A stretch of 64,000 nt of DNA, taken from Octopus vulgaris (Eukaryota). This document shows positions 12,167 through 53,948 of this stretch, piece after piece (position 1 is the stretch's first letter; the number at the start of each line of letters is the position of its first letter). The DNA is taken from contig OX597819.1 of NCBI GenBank assembly GCA_951406725.2, forward strand, positions 86,428,001 through 86,492,000, in the 5' to 3' direction. The notes below the pieces were generated by a model. It ran no database searches. It was given only the letters and a program-made list of their open reading frames with translations, and had not been told where the DNA came from. A program made the translations under genes and the position numbers.

Positions 12167-12554
12167 GAAGGAAAATATTTTTATGTAAATAGGGCATTAA
12201 TTCAATGTATCAGCAGCAAACTTGATTCATTTTCTGTATATAAAGGAATGCAAGAAGCAACATACGAACAATTCAATTAACCAAGAAACAGCAGTAGGAC
12301 ATATTTTGCTTCAAGAGAAAAAGATTAAGGAAATAAAACAACATAAATTTAACTATACGATGGGGCAAGGAATGCATTGCAAATATGAAATAGAAGAATT
12401 AGATACACATAAATATGCGAAGTTTTATTTGATTGCTGTGAGCAAGCTGTAAATAACATACAATTATCTACATCTATTATAAAGCACATTCTACGGAAAT
12501 TTCATCAATATATACATAATTATAAGACATAGATTACATATAATGAATACTTAC

Positions 12555-12778
12555 TCTCTCTCCTCTTTCAAAGCTAATCTGTATTCTAGCTTTTCTCCTT
12601 TCCATTGGTTCAACTCTTTGTGCATAGAATCTAGATCTTCTTGAATGTAATCCATTATCTTACCCAATGGGTTTGCACTTTTTGTTAAACCTTGGATGCT
12701 TCCTTGCAACTTTAAAATCTTACTCTCAGTTAGTTCTCTCTGTCTTTGGTATGCAGTACTGGTCATCATAGAGTTCTC
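12555..12778 (-). CDS. TRAF3IP1: TRAF3IP1/IFT54 coding exon, 224 bp, C-terminal coiled coil
   Basis: Acceptor cttttcag, then ENSMMTSTAYQRQRELTESKILKLQGSIQGLTKSANPLGKIMDYIQEDLDSMHKELNQWKGEKLEYRLALKEER, then donor gtaagt. The 'KSAxPLGKIMDYIQED' motif is diagnostic of IFT54. Confidence 0.93.
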
Positions 12779-13309
12779 CTGAAAAGTTCACAATTCATAT
12801 CATAAAGAAGACATTTTATCAAGGTTGGTGATAAGTATAATAACAAGCAATTTTACTGTATCTATAGATGTACCAGGTTGAAATTTGGTTTGTAAATTCT
12901 TTGGTTATAAGCCACCAAATTCATCAAATAATTTAGCGGCTTGAAAAACAATTATTTTCCTTAGAAACAAATTTCAAGCTAATAACCTAATCTGTAGAGA
13001 TGAACCACATTTTAACAATATCAATGTCTACACATAATTTTAATCGGTTGATCTCTGATACTCATTAGGTGTCTTACTCCTGCATATACACATAGTTCCA
13101 GTGTGGATTCAACATAGAAACTTGTGTTACTAATCTAAGAGTGCATAAAACATTCTGAGCTATGAATAACAGGAATTTTACAAGCTTTAGTTTAGCAGTA
13201 CTGATTCTTAGTTCAAATCCAGTATGCACATCAGCTATAAGACACATGATGGTAATTACAGATGAAAATACTCAACACACTGTGTATATATTAAAGCAGT
13301 AGATTGACA

Positions 13310-27325: not shown

Positions 27326-27889
27326 CAATAAATAATGGGGATAGAGCAGTGAAAAATATCTTTTTTCTGTTCATTGGTGATATTTTGATGGGCATGTGTA
27401 TCCATATAAAACTTCCAACAGAGTGTTGTAAACATGAGTGATAATCAGTACATCCTGAGTAGCTAAGCATTGTGGATGGCTGCTGGGTGGTTCTTTTGCA
27501 GTTCAAACAGAATCTTTGATTGATTGCTGATTCATGTAATCACAAATCAATTCAGGATAAGCATAACATGGTTCACAATTGAGCATATTGGGTTATCCCA
27601 GATCAGTTATGTAAGAACCAACAATAATCAAGGGAAGGTGTATATCAAACCATTTAGCATTACTATGCAAGGAATATTGTCATCTCTGAAAGCTATCTCT
27701 ATCATATTAAATCCTTTTCTTTAATACATCTTCATAAACTTCTATTAAATTCACTAAGAATTAAAATCTATATTTCTCTCTCTCTCAGTTACCTAGGATA
27801 TACACTAAACTCATTTCGAAAGGCAAAGTCTATAAGAGAGTTGTCAAGTTTGTCCTAGTTATGTCAAACTCTATCATTCATACTTTCTG

Positions 27890-31450: not shown

Positions 31451-31649
31451 ACAAGACTTCACCAACTCTAAAAACAACATGAAATACGAAAACAAATGAG
31501 TTGAATATACAAACAACAGGAGAAAAACTGGAAAACAGGACAAGTAAACACAGAGAAAGGACCCTTCATCAGTTGTCAGCTGTCTATCTACTCCTCATTT
31601 CGAGCATTCAACTACAATATGAGTCTTCAAAGACAGTAGCTCCCATTAA

Positions 31650-32900
31650 TTCTAAAATAAAATGTAGGATTTATGGAGGGTGTAAACATGCTATACCTCG
31701 ACTGTGCCAAGGCCTTCGACAAAGTTGATCTTGACATGATATGTCAGAAGCTGCGAAACCTTGGTTTTACTTGGAAACTGGGTGAGTGGCTGTATGAATT
31801 TTGGAAGGGTAGGAATCAGACAGTTGTTACCAATGGTGCTCACTCTGAAGAGACATCAATTCTCAGTAGAGTCCCACAGGGAACTGTATTACTATTTGTG
31901 ATGGCCCTCTCAACATGCCCTCTGTGGTACACTCAGCCAATCTGACCAGTTGTGCTGACAACACAAAACTATCGCAGGCAGTTAGAAACCCAGAGGACAT
32001 CATACAACTGCAGAAAGACCTGAATGAGATACACAAATGGGTTAACAAAAATAATATGCAGTTTCAGGCACTCCACTATCAATCCAACACCAGGCTAAAA
32101 TCGGAATAAACTGGACCAGAATGTAATATGATCCCAGAGTCAGAGTCGGTGCATGACCTGGGGGTTCACATGAGCAATGAAGCAACATTCCATGTGCATA
32201 TTACCAAGATGGCAACACTGTGCAGGCGTGTGGCTGGATGGATTCTGAGGACATTCAGAACCAAGAAAAGAAAGGTCCTGCTACTCCAATGGAGGACTTT
32301 TGTTCTCAGCTGCTTGGACTATTGCTCCCAACTATGGTCTCCAGAGAGTGTGAAACAAACTGTGGAACTCAAAGCAATCCAGCACCAATGCACAAAGAAG
32401 ATTGACTTGATGAAAAAGACAGGCTACTGGGAGAGGCTAAAGGGGCTGAGTCTCTATACCCTGAAGAGAAATCAAGAGCGATATGTGGTAATATATATTT
32501 GGAAGATCTTGGAGGGTTTACCTCCCAATTTTGGAATTGACAGCTGTACCAGTCTTTGAACTGGATGGGACTGCATCATACCAAAGATCACATCTTGCTC
32601 ATCTAAAATAAGGACAGCACTGCAATAGTCTGGGGTTCAAGAGCCCTCAATTGTTTGAAATCCTGCCAGGTAACCATAGAGATCTACATGGTGTTGATGT
32701 GGAAGTTTACAAGGAAAGTTTGGATAGGTTTCTATCTGAGATACCAAATGAATCCACATAGTGGAAGGAGACGCAAGGAAGAGCGGCTCTGTCCAATTCG
32801 GTACTTCACCCCAAAAATACTGGAAACAAAACTTAGTAATTACAGGTGGTGCACGAGCATGATCTCAACCTTGGGTTGAAACCAGTGAAAGATAAAAGAT
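31650..32900 (+). mobile_element. 5'-truncated, decayed CR1/L2-group LINE (RT and C-terminal region)
   Basis: YLDCAKAFDKVD, VPQGTVL, ADNTKL, DLGVHMS, LDYCSQLWSP and LSLYTLKRNQER motifs with frameshifts. Tail aaagataaaagata. Confidence 0.85.
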
Positions 32901-33415: not shown

Positions 33416-33419
<4 letters not shown>

Positions 33420-33607
33420 TCATAGATAAGGGCAAACGAAAAAATTTCTAATGCCAAATATGCCGAAAAATTGGGCATATTGTCCATTAACCATATAATT
33501 TTTTCACAATACGCACGCTACCCGTCCATTGGTTAATGGACAATATGCCCAATTTTTCGGCATATTTGGCATTAGAAATTTTTTAGTTTGCCCTTATCAA
33601 TGAATTG
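33416..33607. repeat. Near-perfect inverted repeat with 78-bp arms and a 36-bp loop; MITE-like hairpin
   Basis: 33416-33493 is the reverse complement of 33530-33607 apart from 2-3 differences. Confidence 0.9.
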
Positions 33608-33790
33608 TTTATAAATTTAACCTTTAAAGGTATTTTTTAATATGCTAGCCATTGATAAAGTTTTTTTGGGAAAAGAATTTTTTCGAAAAAAGTTTTACCC
33701 TACATTAGATATATATATATATTTATATATATACACACACACGCATAAATACACACACACATGTATATATGTGTATGTATATATATATAT

Positions 33791-36700
33791 ATTCCCAGTT
33801 CAACTACTTTCTTCTTCAATTTCAGCTCCCGCTCGATGACCGCGGCGGGTTCTTGAAAGGTTTGTCTTACTATATTTTTTTATTCGTTGTTGATACGTTT
33901 GTTCATGCACTGTTGCGAAAATTTGGCCTTTTTTAGGCTACTTTCGGGCCTTCGCCATAGCTTGATTTATCTTCCTATCTCTCTCTCTACAATATTTGAC
34001 CGCAGGCTGCCTCAAGCCGTGATCCCATCTTTGTTGATGCGTTTATTCATGCACTGTTGCGAAGGTTTGGCCTTTTTTGGGCTACTTTCAGGCCTTCGCC
34101 GTGACTTGATTTATCTTCCTATCTCTCTCTCTGCAATATTTGACCGCAGGCTGCCTCAAGCCGTAGTCCCATCTTTTTCCCATCTGTCTTCTTTTTCCTC
34201 CTCTTCTTCTTCATATGCTAAGGCTTGAAAGCCGCCATTACTATTACTATTACGATTCTGCAATTTGAGTTCCCAGTTCAACTACTTTCTTCTTCAATTT
34301 CAGCTCCCGCTCGATGACCGCAGCAAGTTCTTAAAAAATTTATCTTACTATATTTTTTTATTCGTTGTTAATACGTTTATTCATACACTGTTACGAAAAT
34401 TTAACCTTTTTTGGGCTACTTTCAAGCCTTCGCCATAACTTGATTTATCTTCCTATCTCTCTCTCTACAATATTTAACCGCAGGCTGCCTCAAGCCGTAA
34501 TCCCATCTTTTTCCCATCTGTCTTCTTTTTCCTCCTCTTCTTCTTCATATGCTGGAGCTTGAGAGCCGCCATTGCTATTACTGTTGCGATTCTGCAATTT
34601 GAATTCCCAGTTCAGCTACTTTCTTCTTCAGTTTCAGCTCCCGCTCGATGACCGCAGCAGGTTCTTGAAAAATTTATCTTGCTATATTTTTTTATTCGTT
34701 GTTGGTGCGTTTATTCGTGCACTGTTGCGGGGGTTTGACCTTTTTTGGGCTACTTTCGGGCCTTCGCCATAGCTTGATTTATCTTCCTATCTCTCTCTCT
34801 ACAATGTTTGACCGCAGGCTGCCTCAGGCCGTGGTCCCATCTTTGTTGATGCGTTTATTCATACACTGTTGCGAGGATTTGGCCTTTTTTGGGCTACTTT
34901 CAGGCCTTCGCCGTGGCTTGATTTGTCTTCCTATCTCTCTCTCTACAATATTTGACCGCGGGCTGCCTCAGGCCGTGGTCCCATCTTTTTCCCATCTGTC
35001 TTCTTTTTCCTCCTCTTCTTCTTCATATGCTGAGGCTTGGGAGCCGCCATTACTATTACTGTTGCGATTCTGCAGTTTGGATTCCCAGTTCAACTGCTTT
35101 CTTCTTCAATTTCAGCTCCCGCTCGATGACCGCAGCGGGTTCTTGAAAAATTTATCTTACTATGTTTTTTTATTCGTTGTTGATGCGTTTATTCGTGCAC
35201 TGTTGCGAGAGTTTGACCTTTTTTGGGCTGCTTTCAGGCCTTCGCCGTGGCTTGATTTGTCTTCCTATCTCTCTCTCTACAATATTTAACCGCAGGCTGC
35301 CTCAAGCCGTAATCCCATCTTTGTTAATACGTTTATTCATACACTGTTGCGAAAATTTAACCTTTTTTAGGCTGCTTTCGGGCCTTCGCCATGACTTGAT
35401 TTGTCTTCCTATCTCTCTCTCTGCAATATTTGACCGCAGGCTGCCTCAAGCCGTAGTCCCATCTTTTTCCCATCTGTCTTCTTTTTCCTCCTCTTCTTCT
35501 TCATATGCTAGAGCTTGAGGGCCGCCATTGCTATTGCTGTTGCGATTCTGCAATTTGAATTCCCAGTTCAACTACTTTCTTCTTCAATTTCAGCTCCCGC
35601 TCGATGACCGCGGCGGGTTCTTGAAAAGTTTATCTTGCTATATTTTTTTATTCGTTGTTGATACGTTTGTTCATGCACTGTTGCGAAAGTTTGGCCTTTT
35701 TTAGGCTACTTTCGGGCCTTCGCCATAACTTGATTTATCTTCCTATCTCTCTCTCTACAATATTTAACCGCAGGCTGCCTCAAGCCGTAATCCCATCTTT
35801 GTTAATACGTTTATTCATGCACTGTTACGGAAGTTTGACCTTTTTTGGGCTACTTTCAAGCCTTCGCCATAACTTGATTTATCTTCCTATCTCTCTCTCT
35901 ACAATATTTAACCGCAGGCTGCCTCAAGCCGTAATCCCATCTTTTTCCCATCTGTCTTCTTTTTCCTCCTCTTCTTCTTCATATGCTAAAACTTGAAAAC
36001 CGCCATTACTATTACTATTACGATTCTGCAATTTAAATTCCCAGTTCAACTACTTTCTTCTTCAATTTCAACTCCCGCTCGATGACCGCAGCAAGTTCTT
36101 AAAAAATTTATCTTACTATATTTTTTTATTCGTTGTTAATACGTTTATTCATACACTGTTACGAAAATTTAACCTTTTTTAGGCTACTTTCAAGCCTTCG
36201 CCATAACTTGATTTATCTTCCTATCTCTCTCTCTACAATATTTAACCGCAGGCTGCCTCAAGCCGTAATCCCATCTTTTTCCCATCTGTCTTCTTTTTCC
36301 TCCTCTTCTTCTTCATATGCTAAAACTTGAAAACCGCCATTACTATTACTATTACGATTCTGCAATTTAAATTCCCAGTTCAACTACTTTCTTCTTCAAT
36401 TTCAACTCCCGCTCGATGACCGCAGCAAGTTCTTAAAAAATTTATCTTACTATATTTTTTTATTCGTTGTTAATACGTTTATTCATACACTGTTACGAAA
36501 ATTTAACCTTTTTTAGGCTACTTTCAAGCCTTCGCCATAACTTGATTTATCTTCCTATCTCTCTCTCTACAATATTTAACCGCAGGCTGCCTCAAGCCGT
36601 AATCCCATCTTTGTTAATACGTTTATTCATACACTGTTACGAAAATTTAACCTTTTTAGGCTACTTTCAAGCCTTCGCCATAACTTGATTTATCTTCCTA

Positions 36701-39700
36701 TCTCTCTCTCTACAATATTTAACCGCAGGCTGCCTCAAGCCGTAATCCCATCTTTTTCCCATCTGTCTTCTTTTTCCTCCTCTTCTTCTTCATATGCTAA
36801 AACTTGAAAACCGCCATTACTATTACTATTACGATTCTGCAATTTAAATTCCCAGTTCAACTACTTTCTTCTTCAATTTCAACTCCCGCTCGATGACCGC
36901 AGCAAGTTCTTAAAAAATTTATCTTACTATATTTTTTTATTCGTTGTTAATACGTTTATTCATACACTGTTACGAAAATTTAACCTTTTTTAGGCTACTT
37001 TCAAGCCTTCGCCATAACTTGATTTATCTTCCTATCTCTCTCTCTACAATATTTAACCGCAGGCTGCCTCAAGCCGTAATCCCATCTTTTTCCCATCTGT
37101 CTTCTTTTTCCTCCTCTTCTTCTTCATATGCTAAAACTTGAAAACCGCCATTACTATTACTATTACGATTCTGCAATTTAAATTCCCAGTTCAACTACTT
37201 TCTTCTTCAATTTCAACTCCCGCTCGATGACCGCAGCAAGTTCTTAAAAAATTTATCTTACTATATTTTTTTATTCGTTGTTAATACGTTTATTCATACA
37301 CTGTTACGAAAATTTAACCTTTTTTAGGCTACTTTCAAGCCTTCGCCATAACTTGATTTATCTTCCTATCTCTCTCTCTACAATATTTAACCGCAGGCTG
37401 CCTCAAGCCGTAATCCCATCTTTGTTAATACGTTTATTCATACACTGTTACGAAAATTTAACCTTTTTTAGGCTACTTTCAAGCCTTCGCCATAACTTGA
37501 TTTATCTTCCTATCTCTCTCTCTACAATATTTAACCGCAGGCTGCCTCAAGCCGTAATCCCATCTTTTTCCCATCTGTCTTCTTTTTCCTCCTCTTCTTC
37601 TTCATATGCTAAAACTTGAAAACCGCCATTACTATTACTATTACGATTCTGCAATTTAAATTCCCAGTTCAACTACTTTCTTCTTCAATTTCAACTCCCG
37701 CTCGATGACCGCAGCAAGTTCTTAAAAAATTTATCTTACTATATTTTTTTATTCGTTGTTAATACGTTTATTCATACACTGTTACGAAAATTTAACCTTT
37801 TTTAGGCTACTTTCAAGCCTTCGCCATAACTTGATTTATCTTCCTATCTCTCTCTCTACAATATTTAACCGCAGGCTGCCTCAAGCCGTAATCCCATCTT
37901 TGTTAATACGTTTATTCATACACTGTTACGAAAATTTAACCTTTTTTAGGCTACTTTCAAGCCTTCGCCATAACTTGATTTATCTTCCTATCTCTCTCTC
38001 TACAATATTTAACCGCAGGCTGCCTCAAGCCGTAATCCCATCTTTTTCCCATCTGTCTTCTTTTTCCTCCTCTTCTTCTTCATATGCTAAAACTTGAAAA
38101 CCGCCATTACTATTACTATTACGATTCTGCAATTTAAATTCCCAGTTCAACTACTTTCTTCTTCAATTTCAACTCCCGCTCGATGACCGCAGCAAGTTCT
38201 TAAAAAATTTATCTTACTATATTTTTTTATTCGTTGTTAATACGTTTATTCATACACTGTTACGAAAATTTAACCTTTTTAGGCTACTTTCAAGCCTTCG
38301 CCATAACTTGATTTATCTTCCTATCTCTCTCTCTACAATATTTAACCGCAGGCTGCCTCAAGCCGTAATCCCATCTTTGTTAATACGTTTATTCATACAC
38401 TGTTACGAAAATTTAACCTTTTTTAGGCTACTTTCAAGCCTTCGCCATAACTTGATTTATCTTCCTATCTCTCTCTCTACAATATTTAACCGCAGGCTGC
38501 CTCAAGCCGTAATCCCATCTTTTTCCCATCTGTCTTCTTTTTCCTCCTCTTCTTCTTCATATGCTAAAACTTGAAAACCGCCATTACTATTACTATTACG
38601 ATTCTGCAATTTAAATTCCCAGTTCAACTACTTTCTTCTTCAATTTCAACTCCCGCTCGATGACCGCAGCAAGTTCTTAAAAAATTTATCTTACTATATT
38701 TTTTTATTCGTTGTTAATACGTTTATTCATACACTGTTACGAAAATTTAACCTTTTTTAGGCTACTTTCAAGCCTTCGCCATAACTTGATTTATCTTCCT
38801 ATCTCTCTCTCTACAATATTTAACCGCAGGCTGCCTCAAGCCGTAATCCCATCTTTGTTAATACGTTTATTCATACACTGTTACGAAAATTTAACCTTTT
38901 TAGGCTACTTTCAAGCCTTCGCCATAACTTGATTTATCTTCCTATCTCTCTCTCTACAATATTTAACCGCAGGCTGCCTCAAGCCGTAATCCCATCTTTT
39001 TCCCATCTGTCTTCTTTTTCCTCCTCTTCTTCTTCATATGCTAAAACTTGAAAACCGCCATTACTATTACTATTACGATTCTGCAATTTAAATTCCCAGT
39101 TCAACTACTTTCTTCTTCAATTTCAACTCCCGCTCGATGACCGCAGCAAGTTCTTAAAAAATTTATCTTACTATATTTTTTTATTCGTTGTTAATACGTT
39201 TATTCATACACTGTTACGAAAATTTAACCTTTTTTAGGCTACTTTCAAGCCTTCGCCATAACTTGATTTATCTTCCTATCTCTCTCTCTACAATATTTAA
39301 CCGCAGGCTGCCTCAAGCCGTAATCCCATCTTTGTTAATACGTTTATTCATACACTGTTACGAAAATTTAACCTTTTTTAGGCTACTTTCAAGCCTTCGC
39401 CATAACTTGATTTATCTTCCTATCTCTCTCTCTACAATATTTAACCGCAGGCTGCCTCAAGCCGTAATCCCATCTTTTTCCCATCTGTCTTCTTTTTCCT
39501 CCTCTTCTTCTTCATATGCTAAAACTTGAAAACCGCCATTACTATTACTATTACGATTCTGCAATTTAAATTCCCAGTTCAACTACTTTCTTCTTCAATT
39601 TCAACTCCCGCTCGATGACCGCAGCAAGTTCTTAAAAAATTTATCTTACTATATTTTTTTATTCGTTGTTAATACGTTTATTCATACACTGTTACGAAAA

Positions 39701-42700
39701 TTTAACCTTTTTAGGCTACTTTCAAGCCTTCGCCATAACTTGATTTATCTTCCTATCTCTCTCTCTACAATATTTAACCGCAGGCTGCCTCAAGCCGTAA
39801 TCCCATCTTTTTCCCATCTGTCTTCTTTTTCCTCCTCTTCTTCTTCATATGCTAAAACTTGAAAACCGCCATTACTATTACTATTACGATTCTGCAATTT
39901 AAATTCCCAGTTCAACTACTTTCTTCTTCAATTTCAACTCCCGCTCGATGACCGCAGCAAGTTCTTAAAAAATTTATCTTACTATATTTTTTTATTCGTT
40001 GTTAATACGTTTATTCATACACTGTTACGAAAATTTAACCTTTTTTAGGCTACTTTCAAGCCTTCGCCATAACTTGATTTATCTTCCTATCTCTCTCTCT
40101 ACAATATTTAACCGCAGGCTGCCTCAAGCCGTAATCCCATCTTTGTTAATACGTTTATTCATACACTGTTACGAAAATTTAACCTTTTTTAGGCTACTTT
40201 CAAGCCTTCGCCATAACTTGATTTATCTTCCTATCTCTCTCTCTACAATATTTAACCGCAGGCTGCCTCAAGCCGTAATCCCATCTTTTTCCCATCTGTC
40301 TTCTTTTTCCTCCTCTTCTTCTTCATATGCTAAAACTTGAAAACCGCCATTACTATTACTATTACGATTCTGCAATTTAAATTCCCAGTTCAACTACTTT
40401 CTTCTTCAATTTCAACTCCCGCTCGATGACCGCAGCAAGTTCTTAAAAAATTTATCTTACTATATTTTTTTTTATTCGTTGTTAATACGTTTATTCATAC
40501 ACTGTTACGAAAATTTAACCTTTTTTAGGCTACTTTCAAGCCTTCGCCATAACTTGATTTATCTTCCTATCTCTCTCTACAATATTTAACCGCAGGCTGC
40601 CTCAAGCCGTAATCCCATCTTTGTTAATACGTTTATTCATACACTGTTACGAAAATTTAACCTTTTTTAGGCTACTTTCAAGCCTTCGCCATAACTTGAT
40701 TTATCTTCCTATCTCTCTCTCTACAATATTTAACCGCAGGCTGCCTCAAGCCGTAATCCCATCTTTTTCCCATCTGTCTTCTTTTTCCTCCTCTTCTTCT
40801 TCATATGCTAAAACTTGAAAACCGCCATTACTATTACTATTACGATTCTGCAATTTAAATTCCCAGTTCAACTACTTTCTTCTTCAATTTCAACTCCCGC
40901 TCGATGACCGCAGCAAGTTCTTAAAAAATTTATCTTACTATATTTTTTTATTCGTTGTTAATACGTTTATTCATACACTGTTACGAAAATTTAACCTTTT
41001 TTAGGCTACTTTCAAGCCTTCGCCATAACTTGATTTATCTTCCTATCTCTCTCTCTACAATATTTAACCGCAGGCTGCCTCAAGCCGTAATCCCATCTTT
41101 GTTAATACGTTTATTCATACACTGTTACGAAAATTTAACCTTTTTTAGGCTACTTTCAAGCCTTCGCCATAACTTGATTTATCTTCCTATCTCTCTCTCT
41201 ACAATATTTAACCGCAGGCTGCCTCAAGCCGTAATCCCATCTTTTTCCCATCTGTCTTCTTTTTCCTCCTCTTCTTCTTCATATGCTAAAACTTGAAAAC
41301 CGCCATTACTATTACTATTACGATTCTGCAATTTAAATTCCCAGTTCAACTACTTTCTTCTTCAATTTCAACTCCCGCTCGATGACCGCAGCAAGTTCTT
41401 AAAAAATTTATCTTACTATATTTTTTTATTCGTTGTTAATACGTTTATTCATACACTGTTACGAAAATTTAACCTTTTTTAGGCTACTTTCAAGCCTTCG
41501 CCATAACTTGATTTATCTTCCTATCTCTCTCTCTACAATATTTAACCGCAGGCTGCCTCAAGCCGTAATCCCATCTTTGTTAATACGTTTATTCATACAC
41601 TGTTACGAAAATTTAACCTTTTTTAGGCTACTTTCAAGCCTTCGCCATAACTTGATTTATCTTCCTATCTCTCTCTCTACAATATTTAACCGCAGGCTGC
41701 CTCAAGCCGTAATCCCATCTTTTTCCCATCTGTCTTCTTTTTCCTCCTCTTCTTCTTCATATGCTAAAACTTGAAAACCGCCATTACTATTACTATTACG
41801 ATTCTGCAATTTAAATTCCCAGTTCAACTACTTTCTTCTTCAATTTCAACTCCCGCTCGATGACCGCAGCAAGTTCTTAAAAATTTATCTTACTATATTT
41901 TTTTATTCGTTGTTAATACGTTTATTCATACACTGTTACGAAAATTTAACCTTTTTAGGCTACTTTCAAGCCTTCGCCATAACTTGATTTATCTTCCTAT
42001 CTCTCTCTCTACAATATTTAACCGCAGGCTGCCTCAAGCCGTAATCCCATCTTTGTTAATACGTTTATTCATACACTGTTACGAAAATTTAACCTTTTTT
42101 AGGCTACTTTCAAGCCTTCGCCATAACTTGATTTATCTTCCTATCTCTCTCTCTACAATATTTAACCGCAGGCTGCCTCAAGCCGTAATCCCATCTTTTT
42201 CCCATCTGTCTTCTTTTTCCTCCTCTTCTTCTTCATATGCTAAAACTTGAAAACCGCCATTACTATTACTATTACGATTCTGCAATTTAAATTCCCAGTT
42301 CAACTACTTTCTTCTTCAATTTCAACTCCCGCTCGATGACCGCAGCAAGTTCTTAAAAAATTTATCTTACTATATTTTTTTATTCGTTGTTAATACGTTT
42401 ATTCATACACTGTTACGAAAATTTAACCTTTTTAGGCTACTTTCAAGCCTTCGCCATAACTTGATTTATCTTCCTATCTCTCTCTCTACAATATTTAACC
42501 GCAGGCTGCCTCAAGCCGTAATCCCATCTTTGTTAATACGTTTATTCATACACTGTTACGAAAATTTAACCTTTTTTAGGCTACTTTCAAGCCTTCGCCA
42601 TAACTTGATTTATCTTCCTATCTCTCTCTCTACAATATTTAACCGCAGGCTGCCTCAAGCCGTAATCCCATCTTTTTCCCATCTGTCTTCTTTTTCCTCC

Positions 42701-44640
42701 TCTTCTTCTTCATATGCTAAAACTTGAAAACCGCCATTACTATTACTATTACGATTCTGCAATTTAAATTCCCAGTTCAACTACTTTCTTCTTCAATTTC
42801 AACTCCCGCTCAATGACCGCAGCAAGTTCTTAAAAAATTTATCTTACTATATTTTTTTATTCGTTGTTAATACGTTTATTCATACACTGTTACGAAAATT
42901 TAACCTTTTTTAGGCTACTTTCAAGCCTTCGCCATAACTTGATTTATCTTCCTATCTCTCTCTCTACAATATTTAACCGCAGGCTGCCTCAAGCCGTAAT
43001 CCCATCTTTTTCCCATCTGTCTTCTTTTTCCTCCTCTTCTTCTTCATATGCTAAAACTTGAAAACCGCCATTACTATTACTATTACGATTCTGCAATTTA
43101 AATTCCCAGTTCAACTACTTTCTTCTTCAATTTCAACTCCCGCTCGATGACCGCAGCAAGTTCTTAAAAAATTTATCTTACTATATTTTTTTATTCGTTG
43201 TTAATACGTTTATTCATACACTGTTACGAAAATTTAACCTTTTTTAGGCTACTTTCAAGCCTTCGCCATAACTTGATTTATCTTCCTATCTCTCTCTCTA
43301 CAATATTTAACCGCAGGCTGCCTCAAGCCGTAATCCCATCTTTGTTAATACGTTTATTCATACACTGTTACGAAAATTTAACCTTTTTAGGCTACTTTCA
43401 AGCCTTCGCCATAACTTGATTTATCTTCCTATCTCTCTCTCTACAATATTTAACCGCAGGCTGCCTCAAGCCGTAATCCCATCTTTTTCCCATCTGTCTT
43501 CTTTTTCCTCCTCTTCTTCTTCATATGCTAAAACTTGAAAACCGCCATTACTATTACTATTACGATTCTGCAATTTAAATTCCCAGTTCAACTACTTTCT
43601 TCTTCAATTTCAACTCCCGCTCGATGACCGCAGCAAGTTCTTAAAAAATTTATCTTACTATATTTTTTTATTCGTTGTTAATACGTTTATTCATACACTG
43701 TTACGAAAATTTAACCTTTTTAGGCTACTTTCAAGCCTTCGCCATAACTTGATTTATCTTCCTATCTCTCTCTCTACAATATTTAACCGCAGGCTGCCTC
43801 AAGCCGTAATCCCATCTTTTTCCCATCTGTCTTCTTTTTCCTCCTCTTCTTCTTCATATGCTAAAACTTGAAAACCGCCATTACTATTACTATTACGATT
43901 CTGCAATTTAAATTCCCAGTTCAACTACTTTCTTCTTCAATTTCAACTCCCGCTCGATGACCGCAGCAAGTTCTTAAAAAATTTATCTTACTATATTTTT
44001 TTATTCGTTGTTAATACGTTTATTCATACACTGTTACGAAAATTTAACCTTTTTTAGGCTACTTTCAAGCCTTCGCCATAACTTGATTTATCTTCCTATC
44101 TCTCTCTCTACAATATTTAACCGCAGGCTGCCTCAAGCCGTAATCCCATCTTTGTTAATACGTTTATTCATACACTGTTACGAAAATTTAACCTTTTTTA
44201 GGCTACTTTCAAGCCTTCGCCATAACTTGATTTATCTTCCTATCTCTCTCTCTACAATATTTAACCGCAGGCTGCCTCAAGCCGTAATCCCATCTTTTTC
44301 CCATCTGTCTTCTTTTTCCTCCTCTTCTTCTTCATATGCTAAAACTTGAAAACCGCCATTACTATTACTATTACGATTCTGCAATTTAAATTCCCAGTTC
44401 AACTACTTTCTTCTTCAATTTCAGCTCCCGCTCGATGACCGCAGCAGGTTCTTAAAGAATTTATCTTACTATATTTTTTTATTCGTTGTTAATACGTTTG
44501 TTCATACACTGTTACGAAAATTTAACCTTTTTTAGGCTACTTTCAAGCCTTCGCCATAACTTGATTTATCTTCCTATCTCTCTCTCTACAATATTTAACC
44601 GCAGGCTGCCTCAAGCCGTAATCCCATCTTTTTCCCATCT
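33791..44640 (+). repeat. Tandem array of 24 full units plus 1 partial unit (18 x ~478 bp, 6 x ~334 bp); the long unit is the short unit with an internal 144-bp duplication; terminal units are A-to-G hypermutated
   Basis: The unit start ttcccagttca recurs at ~33792, 34270, 34604, 35083, 35560, 36038 ... 43913 and 44391. Central units are identical except for homopolymer/CT-run length and a single G>A at ~42812. Confidence 0.97.
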
Positions 44641-44669
44641 TTCAGCCATTGCGGTGCGCCCGCCCCCCC

Positions 44670-45180
44670 ACCCCCACCACCAATACCGTTGAACACTGTT
44701 CTCACCCCCACCACCAATACCGTTGAACACTGTTCTCACCCCCACCACCAATACCGTTGAACACTGTTCTCACCCCCACCACCAATACCGTTGAACACTG
44801 TTCTCACCCCCCCCCCCACCACCAATACCAGTATACCCCGTTCTCTCCATCTACACCGGATACACCTTACTCATCTACACTGGGTACGCCCTACTCCCTC
44901 CTCCTCCCCCCACTACCACTTCTCCTCATATGCTTAAGACAAGCTGCTAGCGCCATAGCTCATCAACTGCCCACCGATCTTACGCTTCCTCCTGACACTG
45001 CCTCAATCCGACCATCCCCTTTTAGTACCCTTCTCCTCATATGCTTAAGACAAGCTGCTAGCGCCATAGCTCATCAACTGCCCACCGATCTTACGCTTAC
45101 TGCCTCAATCCGACCATCCCCTTTTAGTACCCTCCCGCCTCGTCAATCCGACCATCCCCTTTAGTACCCTCCCGCCTCGT
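44670..45180 (+). repeat. Tandem duplications in the RTE 5' UTR (33-bp unit x ~4; ~110-bp duplication; ~37-bp duplication)
   Basis: ccccaccaccaataccgttgaacactgttctca repeats at 44672-44810. cttctcctcatatgcttaagacaagctgctagcgcc occurs at ~44919 and ~45030. caatccgaccatcccctttagtaccctcccgcctcgt occurs twice. Confidence 0.9.
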
Positions 45181-45548
45181 AATATCCTACGTTTTTATTT
45201 CTTAGGAACCTACACCAACCCTTCCTGCCATCGTTCCTCCTTACCCCAACCTTCCCCACTGGTTGCTCCCCTATATTACCCGCCTCAACTGGACCTCCCC
45301 AACTCAACTCTAGAATATCTGTATTTCTTTCCTCTACCTAATTACGTTACTCAGAGACGATAACAAATGTCCACTGCTAACACCAGCTCCTGCCCACGGC
45401 GTGGTCAGGTTGGAAGAGAGATCAAAAGAAAAATACCACGAAAACTATCACCACCACTACAACCCTCCTCTTCTCAGGCGCCGAATCCCCCTGTCCCCCC
45501 CACATCTCCTTCCCAGTTTTCAGAGTTGGCACTATCAATGTTGGTACA

Positions 45549-48500
45549 TTGACAGGCAAGTCTAGTGAGATTGTAGAGATGCTAGAGAGAAGACAGGTTG
45601 ATGTATGCTGCATACAAGAGGTAAGATGGAGAGATGCTTCGGCTAGGGTCCTCACGGGCAAGGCACTTAGATACAAACTCTACTGGCAAGGTAACGCGGA
45701 AGGTGTAGGGGGTGTAGGCATTCTCCTTGCGGAGGAATGGGTGGATAAGGTCATAGAGGTTGTCAGGGTTTGTGATAGAGTGCTTAAGCTCAGGTTGGTC
45801 CTACAGAGTGGCACAGCTATGATTATCTCAGCCTATGCCCCACAAGCGGGACTACCAAATGATCAGAAGGACAACTTTTATGATACCCTTCTGCAGGCTA
45901 CTTCAAAGACTAGTAACAAGGACCTCATCTTTGTAGGTGGAGATTTTAACGGGCATGTTGGGCGGGAATCGGGTATCTTCACTGGGGTACATGGTGGATA
46001 TGGTATTGGCACCAGAAACGATGAGGGAACTAGACTACTGGAATTCTGTGATGCATGTAACCTTTCAATCTGCAACACTAACTTCAAGAAGCCAGTCTGC
46101 CACCTTATAACTTATCAGTCAGGAGACTCCGCTAGCCAAATAGACTTCATCCTCACCAGACAACGGGATGCAGGGTTGCTCTTGAATACAAAGACCCTCC
46201 CGGGTGAAGAATGTATCCCTCAGCATAGACTAATCATCAGTGACTTTAAGCTTGAGGCCAGAAGGACTCCAAGAAACAAACCAATCCAGAAAAGAAGGAT
46301 TTGGAGGCTAAAGAACCCTTCGCATGGTCAGAAATTTAGGGACATACTCATCAAGAAATTTGATGAGAGGGAAGAGGAGCTTCAGACGTCAGACATAGAA
46401 GGTAGCTGGGAATTCCTACGGGACAGCTTGTTGAGTGCCACAGACCAAGTTTGTGGATGGTGCAAAGTCCCTTCCAGACCTAGAATTACGTGGTGGTGGA
46501 ATAGTGCAGTAGATAAAGCCATCTGTGAAAAGAGACGGGCCTGGAAAGCCTGGAAGGAGGGGGGCAGCAGGGAACTGTACCAGATAGCCAAAAGGGAGGC
46601 TGGGCGGCAGGTATACATTGCCAAAGATGTAGCAGAAAAGAAGAAGTTTGCCAATGTCCAGCGTCGCGAGGATCAAAGAGCTGAAGTATTTCGGATTGCC
46701 AGACAGTGTGTCAGAGAAAATAGCGATGTTATAGGAGAGAAATGTGTCCGCATGGATGATGGGGCACTTGCTTTTACTACTAGTGAAAAGAAAGAGGCCT
46801 GGAGAAGCCATTATGAAAGACTGCTAAATGAGGAGAATGAATGGGAGGAGGAGAGCCTGCCAAATGTTGACCCAGTAGAGGGACCAGCTACCCGAATAGA
46901 CAGCTCCCTTGTAGATAAGGCAATTAAGGATATGAAACCAGGCAAAGCCCCTGGCCTATCAGGAATCACTGCTGAGATGCTTAAAACAGCTGGCTATGTG
47001 GGACATGCCATAGTCACCCGCATTGTAAACCAGGTAGTTCACAATGGAGCCATACCCAATGACTGGTGCAGCAGTACCATAGTCAACTGCTACAAGGGTA
47101 AGGGTGATGCTCTAGATAGAAATAACTACAGAGGTATCAAACTGTTGGACCAGGTGATGAAGGTCTCAGAGAAGGTCATAACCAATCTCATTAGGGAGAG
47201 AATTTGTTTAGATGAAATGCAGTTCGGTTTTGTACCAGGTAGAAGCACCACTGATGCTATATTCCTGGTCCGACAACTGCAGGAGAAGTACCTAGCTAAA
47301 GATAAACCCCTCTACATAGCTTTTGTAGACTTGGAGAAAGCCTTTGACAGGGTTCCCCGTTCCCTTATCTGGTGGTCGATGCGGAAACTGGAGATTGAAG
47401 AATGGCTAATAAGGGCTGTACAGGCTCTATACAGAGAGGCTGTTAGCAAGGTTAGGATTGGCAACGAATATAGTGAAGAATTCCGAGTAGAAGTAGGTGT
47501 GCACCAGGGCTCAGCCCTCAGTCCCCTTTTGTTCATCATAGTACTTCAAGCAATAACAGAGGAATTCAAAACGGGATGCCCCTGGGAGCTCCTCTATGCC
47601 GATGACCTAGCTCTCATAGCAGAATCACTACCGGAACTAGAAGAGAAATTTCGGGTATGGAAGCAAGGGTTGGAATCAAAGGGCCTTAGAATAAATGTAG
47701 CAAAGACCAAAGTATTAGTAAGCAGCAAGAGGTACTCAACACACATCCCCTCGGGTAGGTGGCCCTGCTCAACCTGTAGGAAAGGTACAGGTAGAAACTC
47801 CATAAGATGCACCCAATGTAAGTTATGGACACATAAGAGGTGCAGCAACATTAAAGGGAAATTAACAGATAAGATAGCTTTCATGTGCGGCAGATGCACA
47901 GGGACAATAGACACAACAGACACTCAGAAAACAGATTCCATCACACTCCAGGGAGAGAAACTAGAAGTAGTTGATAGTTTCCGCTACCTGGGAGACCAAG
48001 TTAGTAGCGGAGGTGGATGCACAGAGAGTATCACCACTAGAATACGAATAGCCTGGGCAAAGTTCAGAAAGCTCCTACCCCTACTGGCAACAAAAGGCCT
48101 CTCCCTCAGAGCAAAAGGTAGATTATATGATGCATGTGTGCGAACTGCCATGCTTCACGGTAATGAAACATGGGCTGTGACTGCAGAAGACATGCGTAGA
48201 CTTGAAAGAAATGAAGCTAGCATGATCCGCTGGATGTGTAGTGTCAGTGTGCACGCAAAACAGAGTGTAAGTATCCTGAGAGAAATGCTGGATATAAGAA
48301 GCATCAGATGTGGTGTGCAAGAGCGACGCTTGCGATGGTATGGTCATGTGCTGCGGATGGATGAAGAGAGATGTGTGAAGAAGTGCCACTCCCAAACAGT
48401 TGAAGGTATCAGGGGGAGAGGTAGACCCAGGAAGACATGGGATGAGGTGGTCAAGCATGACCTCAGAGCATTGGGCCTCACTGAGGCAATGGCGAAGGAC

Positions 48501-48623
48501 CGAGATCTCTGGAGATATGCTGTGACTACAAAGACCCGGGCTGCTTTCTGCAGCAATTCCACATACCCCCTACCCATTCTAAGTACCCCCCTACCCATTC
48601 TAAGTACCCCCTACCCATTCTAA
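45549..48623 (+). CDS. RTE LINE polyprotein: APE endonuclease, reverse transcriptase and C4HC3 zinc finger; true start probably ATG 45367
   Basis: EN motifs (RVGTINVGTL just upstream in frame, CIQE, AYAP, GDFNGHVG, QIDFIL). RT motifs (YRGIKLL, QFGF, FVDLEKAFDRV, GVHQGSALSPLLF, LYADD). RTE C-terminal motifs (RRLRWYGHV, RGRGRPRKTW). 1024 codons without a stop. Confidence 0.96.
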   Translation: MTGKSSEIVEMLERRQVDVCCIQEVRWRDASARVLTGKALRYKLYWQGNAEGVGGVGILLAEEWVDKVIEVVRVCDRVLKLRLVLQSGTAMIISAYAPQAGLPNDQKDNFYDTLLQATSKTSNKDLIFVGGDFNGHVGRESGIFTGVHGGYGIGTRNDEGTRLLEFCDACNLSICNTNFKKPVCHLITYQSGDSASQIDFILTRQRDAGLLLNTKTLPGEECIPQHRLIISDFKLEARRTPRNKPIQKRRIWRLKNPSHGQKFRDILIKKFDEREEELQTSDIEGSWEFLRDSLLSATDQVCGWCKVPSRPRITWWWNSAVDKAICEKRRAWKAWKEGGSRELYQIAKREAGRQVYIAKDVAEKKKFANVQRREDQRAEVFRIARQCVRENSDVIGEKCVRMDDGALAFTTSEKKEAWRSHYERLLNEENEWEEESLPNVDPVEGPATRIDSSLVDKAIKDMKPGKAPGLSGITAEMLKTAGYVGHAIVTRIVNQVVHNGAIPNDWCSSTIVNCYKGKGDALDRNNYRGIKLLDQVMKVSEKVITNLIRERICLDEMQFGFVPGRSTTDAIFLVRQLQEKYLAKDKPLYIAFVDLEKAFDRVPRSLIWWSMRKLEIEEWLIRAVQALYREAVSKVRIGNEYSEEFRVEVGVHQGSALSPLLFIIVLQAITEEFKTGCPWELLYADDLALIAESLPELEEKFRVWKQGLESKGLRINVAKTKVLVSSKRYSTHIPSGRWPCSTCRKGTGRNSIRCTQCKLWTHKRCSNIKGKLTDKIAFMCGRCTGTIDTTDTQKTDSITLQGEKLEVVDSFRYLGDQVSSGGGCTESITTRIRIAWAKFRKLLPLLATKGLSLRAKGRLYDACVRTAMLHGNETWAVTAEDMRRLERNEASMIRWMCSVSVHAKQSVSILREMLDIRSIRCGVQERRLRWYGHVLRMDEERCVKKCHSQTVEGIRGRGRPRKTWDEVVKHDLRALGLTEAMAKDRDLWRYAVTTKTRAAFCSNSTYPLPILSTPLPILSTPYPF

Positions 48624-48702
48624 GTACCCCGGATCCCCAAAGTACCCCGGATCCCCAAAGTACCCTGGATCCCCAAAATACCCCAATCCCCAAAGTACCC
48701 CG
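48565..48702 (+). repeat. Short tandem repeats at the ORF end/3' UTR (~21-bp x3, ~18-bp x4)
   Basis: Units ccccctacccattctaagta and ccccggatccccaaagta. Confidence 0.85.
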
Positions 48703-49807
48703 GACCTCGTTGCCCCCGTGCCGCTGACACGTTAAAATGCTCGAATCCGATCGTGACGATGCCGGACCCTCCGGCCCCTGTGCAGGTGGCACGTAAAAAG
48801 CACCCAATCCACTCACGGAGTGGTTGGCGTTAGGAAGGGCATCCAGCCGTAGAAACTCTGCCAGATTCAGACTGGAGCCTGGAGCGGCCCCTGGCTTCCC
48901 AGACCCGGTCAAACCGTCCAACCCGTGCTAGCGCGGAAAGCGGACGTTAAACGATGATGATGATGATATACATATATACACATACATATGTATATATGTA
49001 TACATATATATACGTACATATATATACATACATATACATATATATATGCACACATATATGCAGACATATATATCTATACATATATATATATATACACATA
49101 TATACCCGGTGTTGCATGGGATTAAAATGGCATAGTTTTTTAATTGTTTTACTTGTTTTAGTCATATGACTGTGGCCATGCTGGAGCACTGCCTTTACTC
49201 GAACAAATCGATACCAGGATTTATTCTTTGGAAGCCTAGTACTTATTTTATCAGTGGCTTTTACTGAACCACTCAGTTATGGGAACATAAACATAGTAAC
49301 ATCAGTTGTCAAGCAATGGTGGTGGTACAAACACAGACACACGTGCACACAAATATATACGACAGTCTTCTTTCAGTTTCCATGTATGAAATCCACTTTA
49401 AAGGTTTTGGTCGGCATGAAGCTATTATGTATATATAATCTATATATATCAATTACTCCTTTACTTGTTTCAGTCATTTGAGTGTAAACATACTGGAGCA
49501 GTGCCTTTTAGTTGGTAAAATTGACTCTGGACTTATTCTGCTAAGTTACAGGGACATAATGACACCAATATATGCACTAACCAAAATAAGTGGATCTATT
49601 GATTAGGAAAATACTATTTACTTGTTTAATGGTTGTACTGGATAAATTGCAAAAATAAATTTAACAGTTCAAATACTAAGAAATAGGCATACACAATTTC
49701 ATTTTTACCAAATAATTTAGGAAAAGGAATGTGTTATTTCCATTGGCTATATATAAGGATCTCTTCCAGGGATGAATAGGTTAAATCCCTTGGTTTTTAA
49801 AGTAAAA

Positions 49808-53039: not shown

Positions 53040-53948
53040 CATCATCATCGTTTAACGTCCACTTTCCATGCTAATATGGGTTGGACGATTTGACTGAGGG
53101 CTGGCGAACCAGGCTGCAATCTTGATCTGGCAGAGTTTCTACAGCTGGATGCCCTTCCTAATGCCAACCACTCTGTGAGTGTAGTGAATGCTTTTATGTG
53201 CCACCGGCATGGAGGCCAGTCAGGCGGTACTGGCAACGACCTCGCTTGAATCTTTTTACACATGCCACCGGCACAGGTGCCAGGAAGGCGATGCTGGTAA
53301 CAATCATGCACAAATGGAGCCTTTATGTGCCACTGGCACAGAAGCTGGTTAGCCGCTCTGTCAACGATCACACTTATAGGGTGCTCTTTGCACCCTGCTA
53401 GCACAGATGTCAGTCATCGAATTTGATTTTGATTTGGATTTCACTTGCCTCAACAGGTCTTCGCAAGCAGAATTTAGTGTCCAAAGAAGGAAAAGGTACG
53501 CATAAGTGGGCTGGTTACGCCCCTGGCATAGGCCACGAGGTTATGGTCTCATTTGGCTTGATGGGTCTTCTCAAGCACAGAATATTTCCAAAAGTCTTGG
53601 TCACTAGTCATTTCCTTGGTGAGGCCTAAAGTTTGAAGGTTATGCTTCACCACTTCATCCCAGGTCTTCCTGGGTCTACCTCTTCCGCAGGTTCCCTCAA
53701 TTGCTAGGGTGTGGCACTTTTTCACACAGCTATCCTCATCCATTCTTGCCACATGACCATACCAGCAGAGTCGTCTCTCTTGCACACCACATCTGATGCT
53801 TCTCAGGTCCAACTTTTCTCTCAAGGTATTTACACTCTGTCGAGTATGCACACTGATATTACACATCCATCAGATCATACTGGCTTCATTCCTTGTGAGC
53901 TTACGCATATCCTCAGCAGTCACAGCCCATGTTTCACTGCCATGTAGC
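53040..53948 (-). mobile_element. 3' fragment of an RTE LINE (related subfamily with a different 3' UTR)
   Basis: LDLRSIRCGVQERRLCWYGHVARMDEDSCVKKC...GRGRPRKTWDEVVKH, plus the shared tail and (atc)n. Confidence 0.9.

Follow-up and report, generated by a model that had tools for sequence, protein, structure and literature searches.

We identify an element in a 64,000 nt stretch of Octopus vulgaris DNA (the window) as a young copy of an RTE-type LINE, and the 334/478 bp tandem repeat that precedes its body as the family's own 5' monomer array. The array carries 170 A>G substitutions on the RTE sense strand. We consider it likely that these were made by ADAR on the RNA of the element, and were then fixed in DNA when that RNA was reverse transcribed into a (TA)n site. 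The relevant features of the window are as follows.

12554..12787, minus strand: open frame with a C-terminal exon (MIP-T3_C) of the likely host gene, IFT54/TRAF3IP1-like (Pfam PF17749, E 1.4e-21)
33709..33791, no strand: target microsatellite of (TA)/(CA), part left of the insertion, recognized from sequence; 77 of 103 family 5' ends adjoin a TA run
33792..44654, plus strand: 5' monomer array of the RTE family, from counts of its X and Y blocks and from the array at the RTE starts of other loci
33825..35847, plus strand: main zone of putative A>G hyper-editing, covering the first five units, in which 166 of 559 A are changed
44424..44500, plus strand: second, small A>G cluster of 4 sites in the last monomer
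44655..45366, plus strand: the 'tether', a non-repeated stretch of 5' UTR that is matched at 100% by other loci
45367..48623, plus strand: coding region with AP endonuclease, RT and a PHD-like finger, without edits
48624..48967, plus strand: 3' UTR with 18-21 bp repeats, and (GAT)5 tail (48953-48967)
48968..49104, no strand: target microsatellite of (TA)/(CA), part right of the insertion

The tandem array begins at 33792, inside a monomer, and comprises 25 X blocks and 43 Y blocks, which combine as X+Y units (334 bp) and X+Y+Y units (478 bp), with no spacer between the array and the RTE sequence. The seamless join of the original prediction was upheld, but its 'mid-unit' fusion at 44640/44641 was not, since the letters at 44641-44654 belong to the monomer. 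These letters form the end of every monomer in most subfamilies, and we place the natural boundary of the array near 44654 for this reason; the 334 bp unit of the window is a variant 14 nt shorter than the 348 bp monomer. The tether that follows contains short internal repeats of 34, 24 and 37 bp.

A short upstream frame with its ATG at 45367 overlaps a stop-free frame of 1080 aa (45381-48623), in which AP endonuclease (Pfam PF03372/PF14529) and RT (PF00078) domains were detected. The coding region differs from each of the three closest copies by 2 substitutions, none of which is an A>G change in this copy. One long ORF with AP endonuclease and RT, and a tail of short repeats with no poly(A), are traits of the RTE clade, and the clade name used here follows this architecture together with the label given in the original prediction. 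Sibling copies have tails of (GAT)3-13. The (GAT)n tail of the RTE and the (TA)/(CA) tracts on both sides of the insertion, as originally described, were confirmed, and no target site duplication (TSD) of at least 6 nt was resolved at this locus, as had been anticipated.

Two minus-strand N-terminal exons (PF10243) of the likely host gene were located at G000:C6:86606538 and 86675629, 115 and 184 kb beyond the right end of the window. Given that the C-terminal exon lies to the left of the element, at 12554..12787, we infer that the element is intronic and antisense in the IFT54/TRAF3IP1-like gene, in agreement with the earlier placement in an intron.

Substitutions in the array are almost exclusively of one type: read along the RTE sense strand, 170 are A>G and a single one is G>A. 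The marks had been predicted on this strand, which proved correct, but they are not array-wide: 166 fall within the 5'-most 2 kb (33825-35847) and a further 4 within 44424-44500, whilst the intervening 8.5 kb has none. The A>G marks are private to this copy. Other arrays showed A>G at 4/11,636, 5/20,401 and 0/3,276 A, and the left flank of the element is without bias (38 A>G and 39 G>A). No sibling sharing the edits was found, the best identity being 89-90%, the same as for unedited copies. Similarly, the search for a donor arranged in the 334/478 pattern gave none; apart from this copy, an exact match to the Y-Y junction is present only once, at C18, where the order is different. Contig C40 was considered as the other haplotype of the locus and rejected, as its flank match is limited to an old RTE fragment.

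Among nine Y copies, no two had the same edit pattern, and 168 of 300 site pairs failed the four-gamete test, which argues that the marks were laid on the multimer and were not inherited by duplication. The rolling-circle copying of one edited circle was also rejected, since the edits differ in every Y copy.

The marks form a dense, A>G-only cluster on one strand (170/171 substitutions), a pattern that is characteristic of ADAR. The A>G rate varied with the 5' neighbour (U 0.39, A 0.35, C 0.12 and G 0.08), and only 3/38 A that follow a G were changed, compared with 163/521 elsewhere (Fisher P 0.0015). Depletion of upstream G is described in PMC5625713 as an ADAR signature common to metazoans. 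By 3' neighbour, the rates were G 0.43, C 0.40, A 0.32 and U 0.17, and the array edits do not follow the preference for a downstream A that the same source describes for invertebrate hyper-editing. The depletion after G and C, and the restriction to sense-strand A>G, lend support to the earlier proposal of an ADAR-marked RNA template.

The element's own RT might instead have produced the changes by misincorporation, inserting dC across from A in the template while nucleotide pools were imbalanced, with no enzymatic editing of the RNA. Such errors would be expected to lie on the template strand, to be of a single type, and to be clustered and private to one insertion, as is the case here, and it should be noted that no duplex partner was found for this copy. 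However, the dependence on the 5' neighbour (G and C against U/A at 0.35-0.39) matches ADAR, the patches are sharply bounded, with 8.5 kb and the entire ORF free of error, and a second copy shows the same pattern. This copy, L034, has 17 A>G and 0 other substitutions in 268 nt near its 3' end, 15 of the 17 being absent from all other aligned copies. We consider misincorporation to be a very unlikely source of the marks.

ADAR can attack RNA:DNA hybrids. Deamination of A in place could have followed insertion if minus-strand RNA of the host intron hybridised to the plus strand of the element, and the antisense position of the element in an intron, the purine-rich nature of minus-strand array RNA and the strand of the changes are all consistent with such an event. 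Yet the changes are confined to the element, next to an unbiased left flank; identical downstream monomers are untouched, and other long arrays are without changes. A density of 30% in one haplotype would also need a single massive unrepaired event, and deamination in place is, in our view, very unlikely.

We also considered that the marks, or their confinement to the ends of the array, are an artefact of assembly or polishing. Single-base losses in the T runs of the middle units resemble read errors, and the unedited middle of 8.5 kb may reflect collapse, polishing or an expansion that followed insertion. In addition, the share of sampled words in runs other than X1 (at most 0.13) does not exceed the 0.14 expected from unedited monomers. 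Run X1 (of DNA type, though the type is guessed, and possibly from the same sample as the window) contains 0.25 of the sampled words, and one of its contigs, at a depth of 36.7, carries the Y-Y junction and both listed G alleles. This contig has the 6 differences expected if it derives from the edited Y copy at 34032, letters having been listed for only two of them. None of the X1 contigs crosses the junction between flank and array, and none of the contigs examined crosses the microsatellite, where an empty allele would show. No contig of runs X2, X3 and X19, which have small shares, was tied to edited copies; contigs drop rare variants, so that this does not count against the presence of edited copies in those runs. 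Against an artefact, read errors would not yield 170/171 A>G changes in an ADAR context, the X1 contig matches an edited copy, and other long arrays of the same assembly are clean. An artefactual origin is very unlikely.

Editing of the element's RNA by ADAR before integration is the explanation that we favour. A donor copy with a long array would have been transcribed, with duplex formation over the distal ~2 kb of the array and over a 77 nt patch at its proximal end. ADAR would then have deaminated ~30% of the A in the duplex part, and the RT of the element, priming at the (GAT)n tail, would have copied inosine as if it were G and terminated at 33792. A self-folding monomer was rejected as the ADAR substrate, as the monomer RNA is unstructured (z +1.18). 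Because monomer RNA does not fold on itself, we suggest antisense monomer RNA as the duplex partner, supplied most probably by an inverted array stretch upstream in the donor transcript, or otherwise by an antisense intronic transcript acting in trans. Within the window, no inverted monomer was present, and none of the 25 longest inverted repeats involves the array. An inverted arrangement of the proposed kind is seen at the 5' end of copy L139, in which a 370 bp inverted monomer stretch is predicted to fold with the array at -549.5 kcal/mol with 89% of positions paired. Inverted monomers were found in 2 of the 127 stretches checked (L139 and L140), and editing was seen in neither.

Copies with such A>G clusters number 2 among the approximately 125 young members of the family that were examined. 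A further apparent case, with 329 A>G between L147 and L114, was dropped because the alignment had paired 3 kb (TA)n tracts, interrupted by TG in one and by CA in the other. We speculate, with somewhat less than even confidence, that a recurrent germline route exists in which ADAR hyper-edits LINE RNA and retrotransposition writes the edits into the genome. Such a route would be fed by giant 5' arrays whose 5' inversions form kilobase hairpins, and the traces that it leaves across the genome would record, in datable form, how ADAR has acted on transposons in the germline.

The nature of the array is apparent from the other copies of the family. At 36 of 37 other loci with the unit, the array lies directly upstream of the RTE start and in the same phase, whilst the 37th stops at an N gap. 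A further 14 loci were found via the UTR, of which 8 reach the RTE start, all with monomer upstream (8/8). Amongst newly fetched start motifs, the array is upstream in 72/73, the exception being truncated at the start. It is the joining of the array to the same RTE start at 36/37 and 72/73 other loci that leads us to assign it to the family. The original prediction had proposed comparing the 5' ends of other full-length copies; the array turned out to be the rule, and different cargo in its place was seen in 0 of the copies examined. The array is present in autonomous and internally deleted RTE subfamilies and in non-autonomous derivatives of 0.7-1.3 kb, and the monomer sequence (333-360 bp, with a 144 bp internal duplication) diverges in step with the RTE subfamilies. 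Arrays of other copies can be as short as 0.1 kb or as long as 25 kb or more (for example 14.2, 7.5, 9.2 and 10.0 kb, and two of at least 25 kb), so that a length of 10.9 kb is not exceptional for the family.

TSD-like duplications of at least 14 nt enclose array and body together in 12 of 98 siblings, compared with a mean of 2.3 in shuffled data (maximum 5, 60 shuffles), which supports the arrival of array and RTE body as one retro-insertion, as originally predicted. Of 89 monomer truncation points, 10 fall in the best 10 nt window (P about 0.05), a weak sign of a fixed start site in the monomer, which microhomology to (TA)n could explain. By analogy with the promoter monomers of mouse L1, the monomers probably serve as promoters and renew a 5' end that is lost by truncation.

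That the RTE captured an RNA of foreign or satellite origin at this insertion, by template switch or 5' transduction, as first proposed, would fit the seamless junction and the long, homogeneous array, but is extremely unlikely, given that the same array and junction recur at other loci (36/37, 8/8 and 72/73), that all fetched unit loci join an RTE start, bar one cut by a gap, that the supposed RTE start lies within the monomer, and that the monomer is without match in viral contigs or Rfam. A 25 nt motif of the monomer had no exact match in viral contigs, and no Rfam family, self-cleaving ribozymes included, came near any gathering score; a scan of L021 for the hammerhead-core pattern gave 3 matches against 5.5 by chance, a search that a divergent HDV-like ribozyme could escape. 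An ancient capture may have taken place at the birth of the family. The suggestion that the insertion archives 'non-self' sequence was built on capture, and is likewise unsupported.

RNA editing in cephalopods is usually treated as transient, in contrast to edited LINE copies held in the genome. If our proposal is correct, RNA that is competent for retrotransposition encounters ADAR in the germline or early embryo and is still able to integrate. Counts of edited and unedited insertions, together with the positions of edits in the element, would make the idea of ADAR as a defence testable from assemblies alone. The family itself, in which both autonomous and non-autonomous members carry 5' arrays that can reach 25 kb or more, is also a straightforward means by which satellite-like arrays become dispersed, and is liable to be divided by repeat annotation into a 'satellite' and a LINE.

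In U6-L1-type chimeras and 5' transductions, extra sequence lies 5' of the LINE body in one insertion, whereas the extra sequence described here is a fixed part of the family, and not a separate RNA or the flank of one donor. A>G hypermutated retroviral proviruses have been attributed to ADAR, in exogenous retroviruses in cell culture. The likeness lies in RNA editing carried to DNA by reverse transcription, which here would concern an endogenous LINE in an assembled animal genome.

The 5' UTR arrays of mouse L1Md, as described in PMC6454616, are similar in having variable numbers of tandem monomers that are 5'-truncated within a monomer and subfamily-specific, followed by a non-repeated stretch and the ORF. 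The present family differs from that description in being RTE-type and from an invertebrate, in its 333-360 bp monomers with a 144 bp internal duplication, in arrays that reach at least 25 kb and are common to the 0.7-1.3 kb non-autonomous derivatives, and in showing at most a weak common truncation site. The brain-expressed octopus element RTE-2_OV (PMC9115989) is likewise an RTE-type LINE with one ORF (about 1100 aa) and a microsatellite-rich 3' end; a 5' tandem array goes unmentioned in the main text of that report. Identity with RTE-2_OV was rejected, as none of the three published primers tried (0/3) finds a site in the window when up to 3 mismatches are allowed.

The APOBEC-edited endogenous retroviruses reported in PMC4866542 and PMC2873906 show a comparable dense, one-type cluster in an integrated copy, seen against near-identical siblings. 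In those reports, the changes are G>A resulting from C-to-U on LTR cDNA, and invertebrates served as the negative control, whereas the changes described here are sense-strand A>G in an ADAR context and in a non-LTR element. A role for ADAR against transposons in cephalopods is proposed in PMC9068888, where it is regarded as unexplored. Finally, the ADAR hyper-editing of metazoan and cephalopod repeat RNAs described in PMC5625713 and PMC9068888 resembles our observations in its A>G clusters in repeat duplexes and its depletion of upstream G, but the edits described there are in RNA over an unedited genome, whereas those of the present element are in the genomic copy.

The focal copy (33792-48967, plus strand) consists of a tandem array that passes into a LINE without a spacer, flanked on both sides by (TA)/(CA) tracts, as the original prediction had described. 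The main features of the window and its surroundings are as follows.

33792 onwards, plus strand: tandem array of units built from an X block and 144-bp Y blocks
45381-48623, plus strand: stop-free frame of 1080 aa with AP endonuclease and RT domains
33416-33609: MITE-like near-perfect hairpin bounded by TA tracts, each arm ~85 bp long
12554-12787, minus strand: MIP-T3 C-terminal exon (150 of 176 candidate frames scanned)
G000:C6:86606538 and 86675629, minus strand: N-terminal exons, far right of the element
27765-30000 (plus), 8251-9050 (minus), 53550-53950 (minus), 31480-32900 (plus) and 62344-62556 (minus): older broken retroelement fragments

The array comprises 334-bp (X+Y) and 478-bp (X+Y+Y) units in irregular order, totalling 25 X and 43 Y blocks, and the LINE, labelled RTE from its architecture and not from a tree, ends in a 3' UTR and a (GAT)5 tail. 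Its body is separated from three siblings by 2 substitutions each, and the copy is therefore very young; no target-site duplication was resolved in the window. The stretch following the hairpin, up to 33700, is very high copy in sequencing runs, and among the older fragments are RTE-like pieces lying in either orientation, a further LINE fragment with an RT and a fragment with RT and RNase H. If the minus-strand exons form one gene, they support the predicted placement of the element, antisense in an intron of an IFT54/TRAF3IP1-like gene that would span at least 235 kb. Any antisense RNA made there would target the RTE family itself, rather than the foreign source once envisaged.

The array is the RTE family's own 5' end. 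Searching the octopus genome with one unit gave 209 matches spread over many short arrays, with 37 of 183 first-look candidates scored. At 36 of 37 such loci, the array stops at one shared unit position and is followed by the same RTE start; the 37th runs into an assembly gap. Fourteen further loci were picked by the non-repeated UTR, avoiding selection by array: monomer sequence precedes the RTE start in all 8 that extend that far, 5 others break off within the UTR and 1 begins at a gap. The exact RTE-start pattern occurs 113 times in the genome, and among the 100 occurrences listed, 72 of 73 new sites have the array directly upstream, the remaining one being truncated at the start. On these counts we reject the interpretation of the array as captured cargo in a chimeric insertion; rather than different cargo, nearly all loci checked carry the same array, and what is left is a LINE family with 5' monomer arrays of great length. 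The letters at 44641-44654, read as the RTE start in the original prediction, close every monomer in most subfamilies; the 334-bp unit is the 348-bp monomer minus 14 nt, and one family locus (L021) has both forms.

Array and body form a single insertion: of the 98 loci for which both ends were available, 12 have the two together bracketed by informative TSD-like duplications of at least 14 nt, whereas 60 shuffled pairings averaged 2.3 and never exceeded 5. Family 5' ends are scattered all round the monomer, with a weak peak at the phase where the focal copy begins (P about 0.05), and a TA run adjoins 77 of 103. Array lengths range from ~0.1 kb up to 7.5, 9.2, 10.0 and 14.2 kb and, twice, at least 25 kb, these two having been followed to 25 kb only and three arrays stopping at a gap or contig start.

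Including the window copy, 115 bodies were delimited: 39 autonomous-sized (25 with an open frame of at least 1000 aa), 70 non-autonomous internal deletion derivatives of 0.67-1.28 kb (for example, L080, L089 and L122) and 6 without a recognised tail. In the derivatives, which represent several separate deletion types, the array and the 3' tail are retained together with a portion of the 5' UTR. Near-homogeneous arrays of at least 25 kb sit on 1-kb non-autonomous bodies at L089+L156+L157 (G000:C2) and L132+L162+L163 (G000:C14). Loci L042, L047, L053 and L054 show further duplications inside monomers (89-bp X repeats, double to quadruple Y blocks); higher-order variants therefore arise repeatedly in the family.

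Compared with the unedited unit, the focal array carries 170 A>G changes and 1 G>A, of which 166 A>G lie in 33825-35847, 4 in 44424-44500 and none between. The first five units have G at 166 of 559 A. The changes are on the sense strand in an ADAR-like context, the edited share of A by 5' neighbour being U 82/210, A 66/189, C 15/122 and G 3/38; sorted by the base that follows, it is G 22/51, C 52/131, A 61/189 and U 31/188. The low share after G matches the upstream-G depletion that the accessible part of PMC5625713 gives as an editing signature common to all its species, but the copy does not follow the preference of invertebrates, stated there, for A and not G downstream of the edited site. 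The flanks have 38 A>G and 39 G>A on the left, and 3 and 12 on the right. Each of the 9 edited Y copies has its own pattern, and of 300 informative site pairs 168 fail the four-gamete test. The molecule that received the changes was thus already multimeric, and later duplication did not spread them.

A public sequencing run, X1, contains 0.25 of sampled words (0.14 expected from unedited monomers), whilst 23 other listed runs contain at most 0.13 each. Over 33612-34031, X1 yielded a 114-nt contig (depth 36.7) that spans a Y-Y junction, has G at both listed positions and 6 differences, and fits the edited Y copy at 34032 alone; no contig in this interval spans the flank-array junction. The contig argues against a consensus artefact, though not independently, as X1 may be the source sample.

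Editing in the focal copy is real as far as our analysis reaches, and it is rare. The first 51 loci held 4 A>G in 11,636 A (columns with at least 3 copies), and among the 73 new loci, the 26 of sufficient length for testing held 5 in 20,401 A. The 14.2-kb array had none, and seven extended loci had 1, located outside the array. One other cluster was found:

G000:C4:70461300-70471299, locus 8465-9071: A>G-only cluster of family copy L034, with 17 sites over 268 nt of the 3' UTR and the end of the ORF

This is the sole same-type cluster exceeding 3 per 300 nt among the 39 autonomous bodies, and RNA edits have likely been fixed in the genome in both L034 and the focal copy. L034 also has a later 253-bp insertion in its ORF. 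Loci L147 and L114 have, beyond the element tails, (TA)n tracts of ~3 kb whose TG or CA interruptions are one-sided; their apparent A>G clusters were dismissed as alignment mimicry by these tracts.

The best explanation, which we hold to be probable, is a young RTE copy with the family's 5' array in which ADAR-edited RNA was fixed by retrotransposition. A donor with a long array would have been transcribed, part of its RNA duplexed and then hyper-edited, and, with a (TA)n site as target, reverse transcription primed at the (GAT)n tail, inosine being read as G. Folding of the monomer RNA is no stronger than that of shuffled sequences (z +1.18), which leaves antisense monomer RNA as the necessary partner. 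An ordinary 5' inversion, as by twin priming, gives an arm complementary to the array when the 5' region is tandemly repeated, as it is here. Inverted monomer stretches upstream of a sense array were present in 2 of 127 stretches checked. At L139 (G000:C17), a 370-bp inverted stretch at the array 5' end folds with the array at -549.5 kcal/mol (89% paired); L140 (G000:C19) is rougher, head-to-head with another element's 5' UTR and beside a gap. Both stretches adjoin the sense array directly, producing long perfect hairpins. If transcription from upstream passed through an inverted arm of 2 kb in the donor, the edited zone would be of like size and end at the 5' truncation point, consistent with the size (~2 kb) and position of the zone in the focal copy. 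Alternatively, antisense intronic transcripts may have paired in trans, which fits the small 3' A>G patch. No donor locus was found, the exact Y-Y junction occurring only in the focal copy and once at C18, in a different order. The unedited middle of the array may already have been on the RNA or may have grown afterwards; no edited unit occurs in duplicate, which speaks for little turnover after insertion.

Retroviral proviruses hypermutated from A to G offer a precedent. The full-text literature, with most subscription papers and Repbase outside its scope, yielded neither an ADAR-edited genomic LINE copy nor an RTE with such 5' arrays, though this does not prove either to be new. The accessible portions of PMC12988792 and PMC6765202 hold no case of an edited genomic LINE or arrayed RTE, and that of PMC9068888 describes a part for cephalopod editing in defence against transposons as unexplored. 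Recently active RTE families are counted in PMC13282606, whose main text, in the part available, is without 5' arrays or editing and whose repeat library may contain the focal family. RTE-2_OV (PMC9115989, in part) was rejected as the identity of the element, as 0 of 3 published primers match. In architecture, the 5' array can be likened to the monomer promoters of mouse L1Md (PMC6454616, in part), its promoter function here being putative. In the accessible part of PMC4866542, invertebrates serve as the negative control and 'ADAR' is absent from the main text. The mutational pattern of the focal copy parallels that of the APOBEC-edited ERVs described in parts of PMC4866542 and PMC2873906; however, here the change is of the ADAR type and the element is non-LTR.
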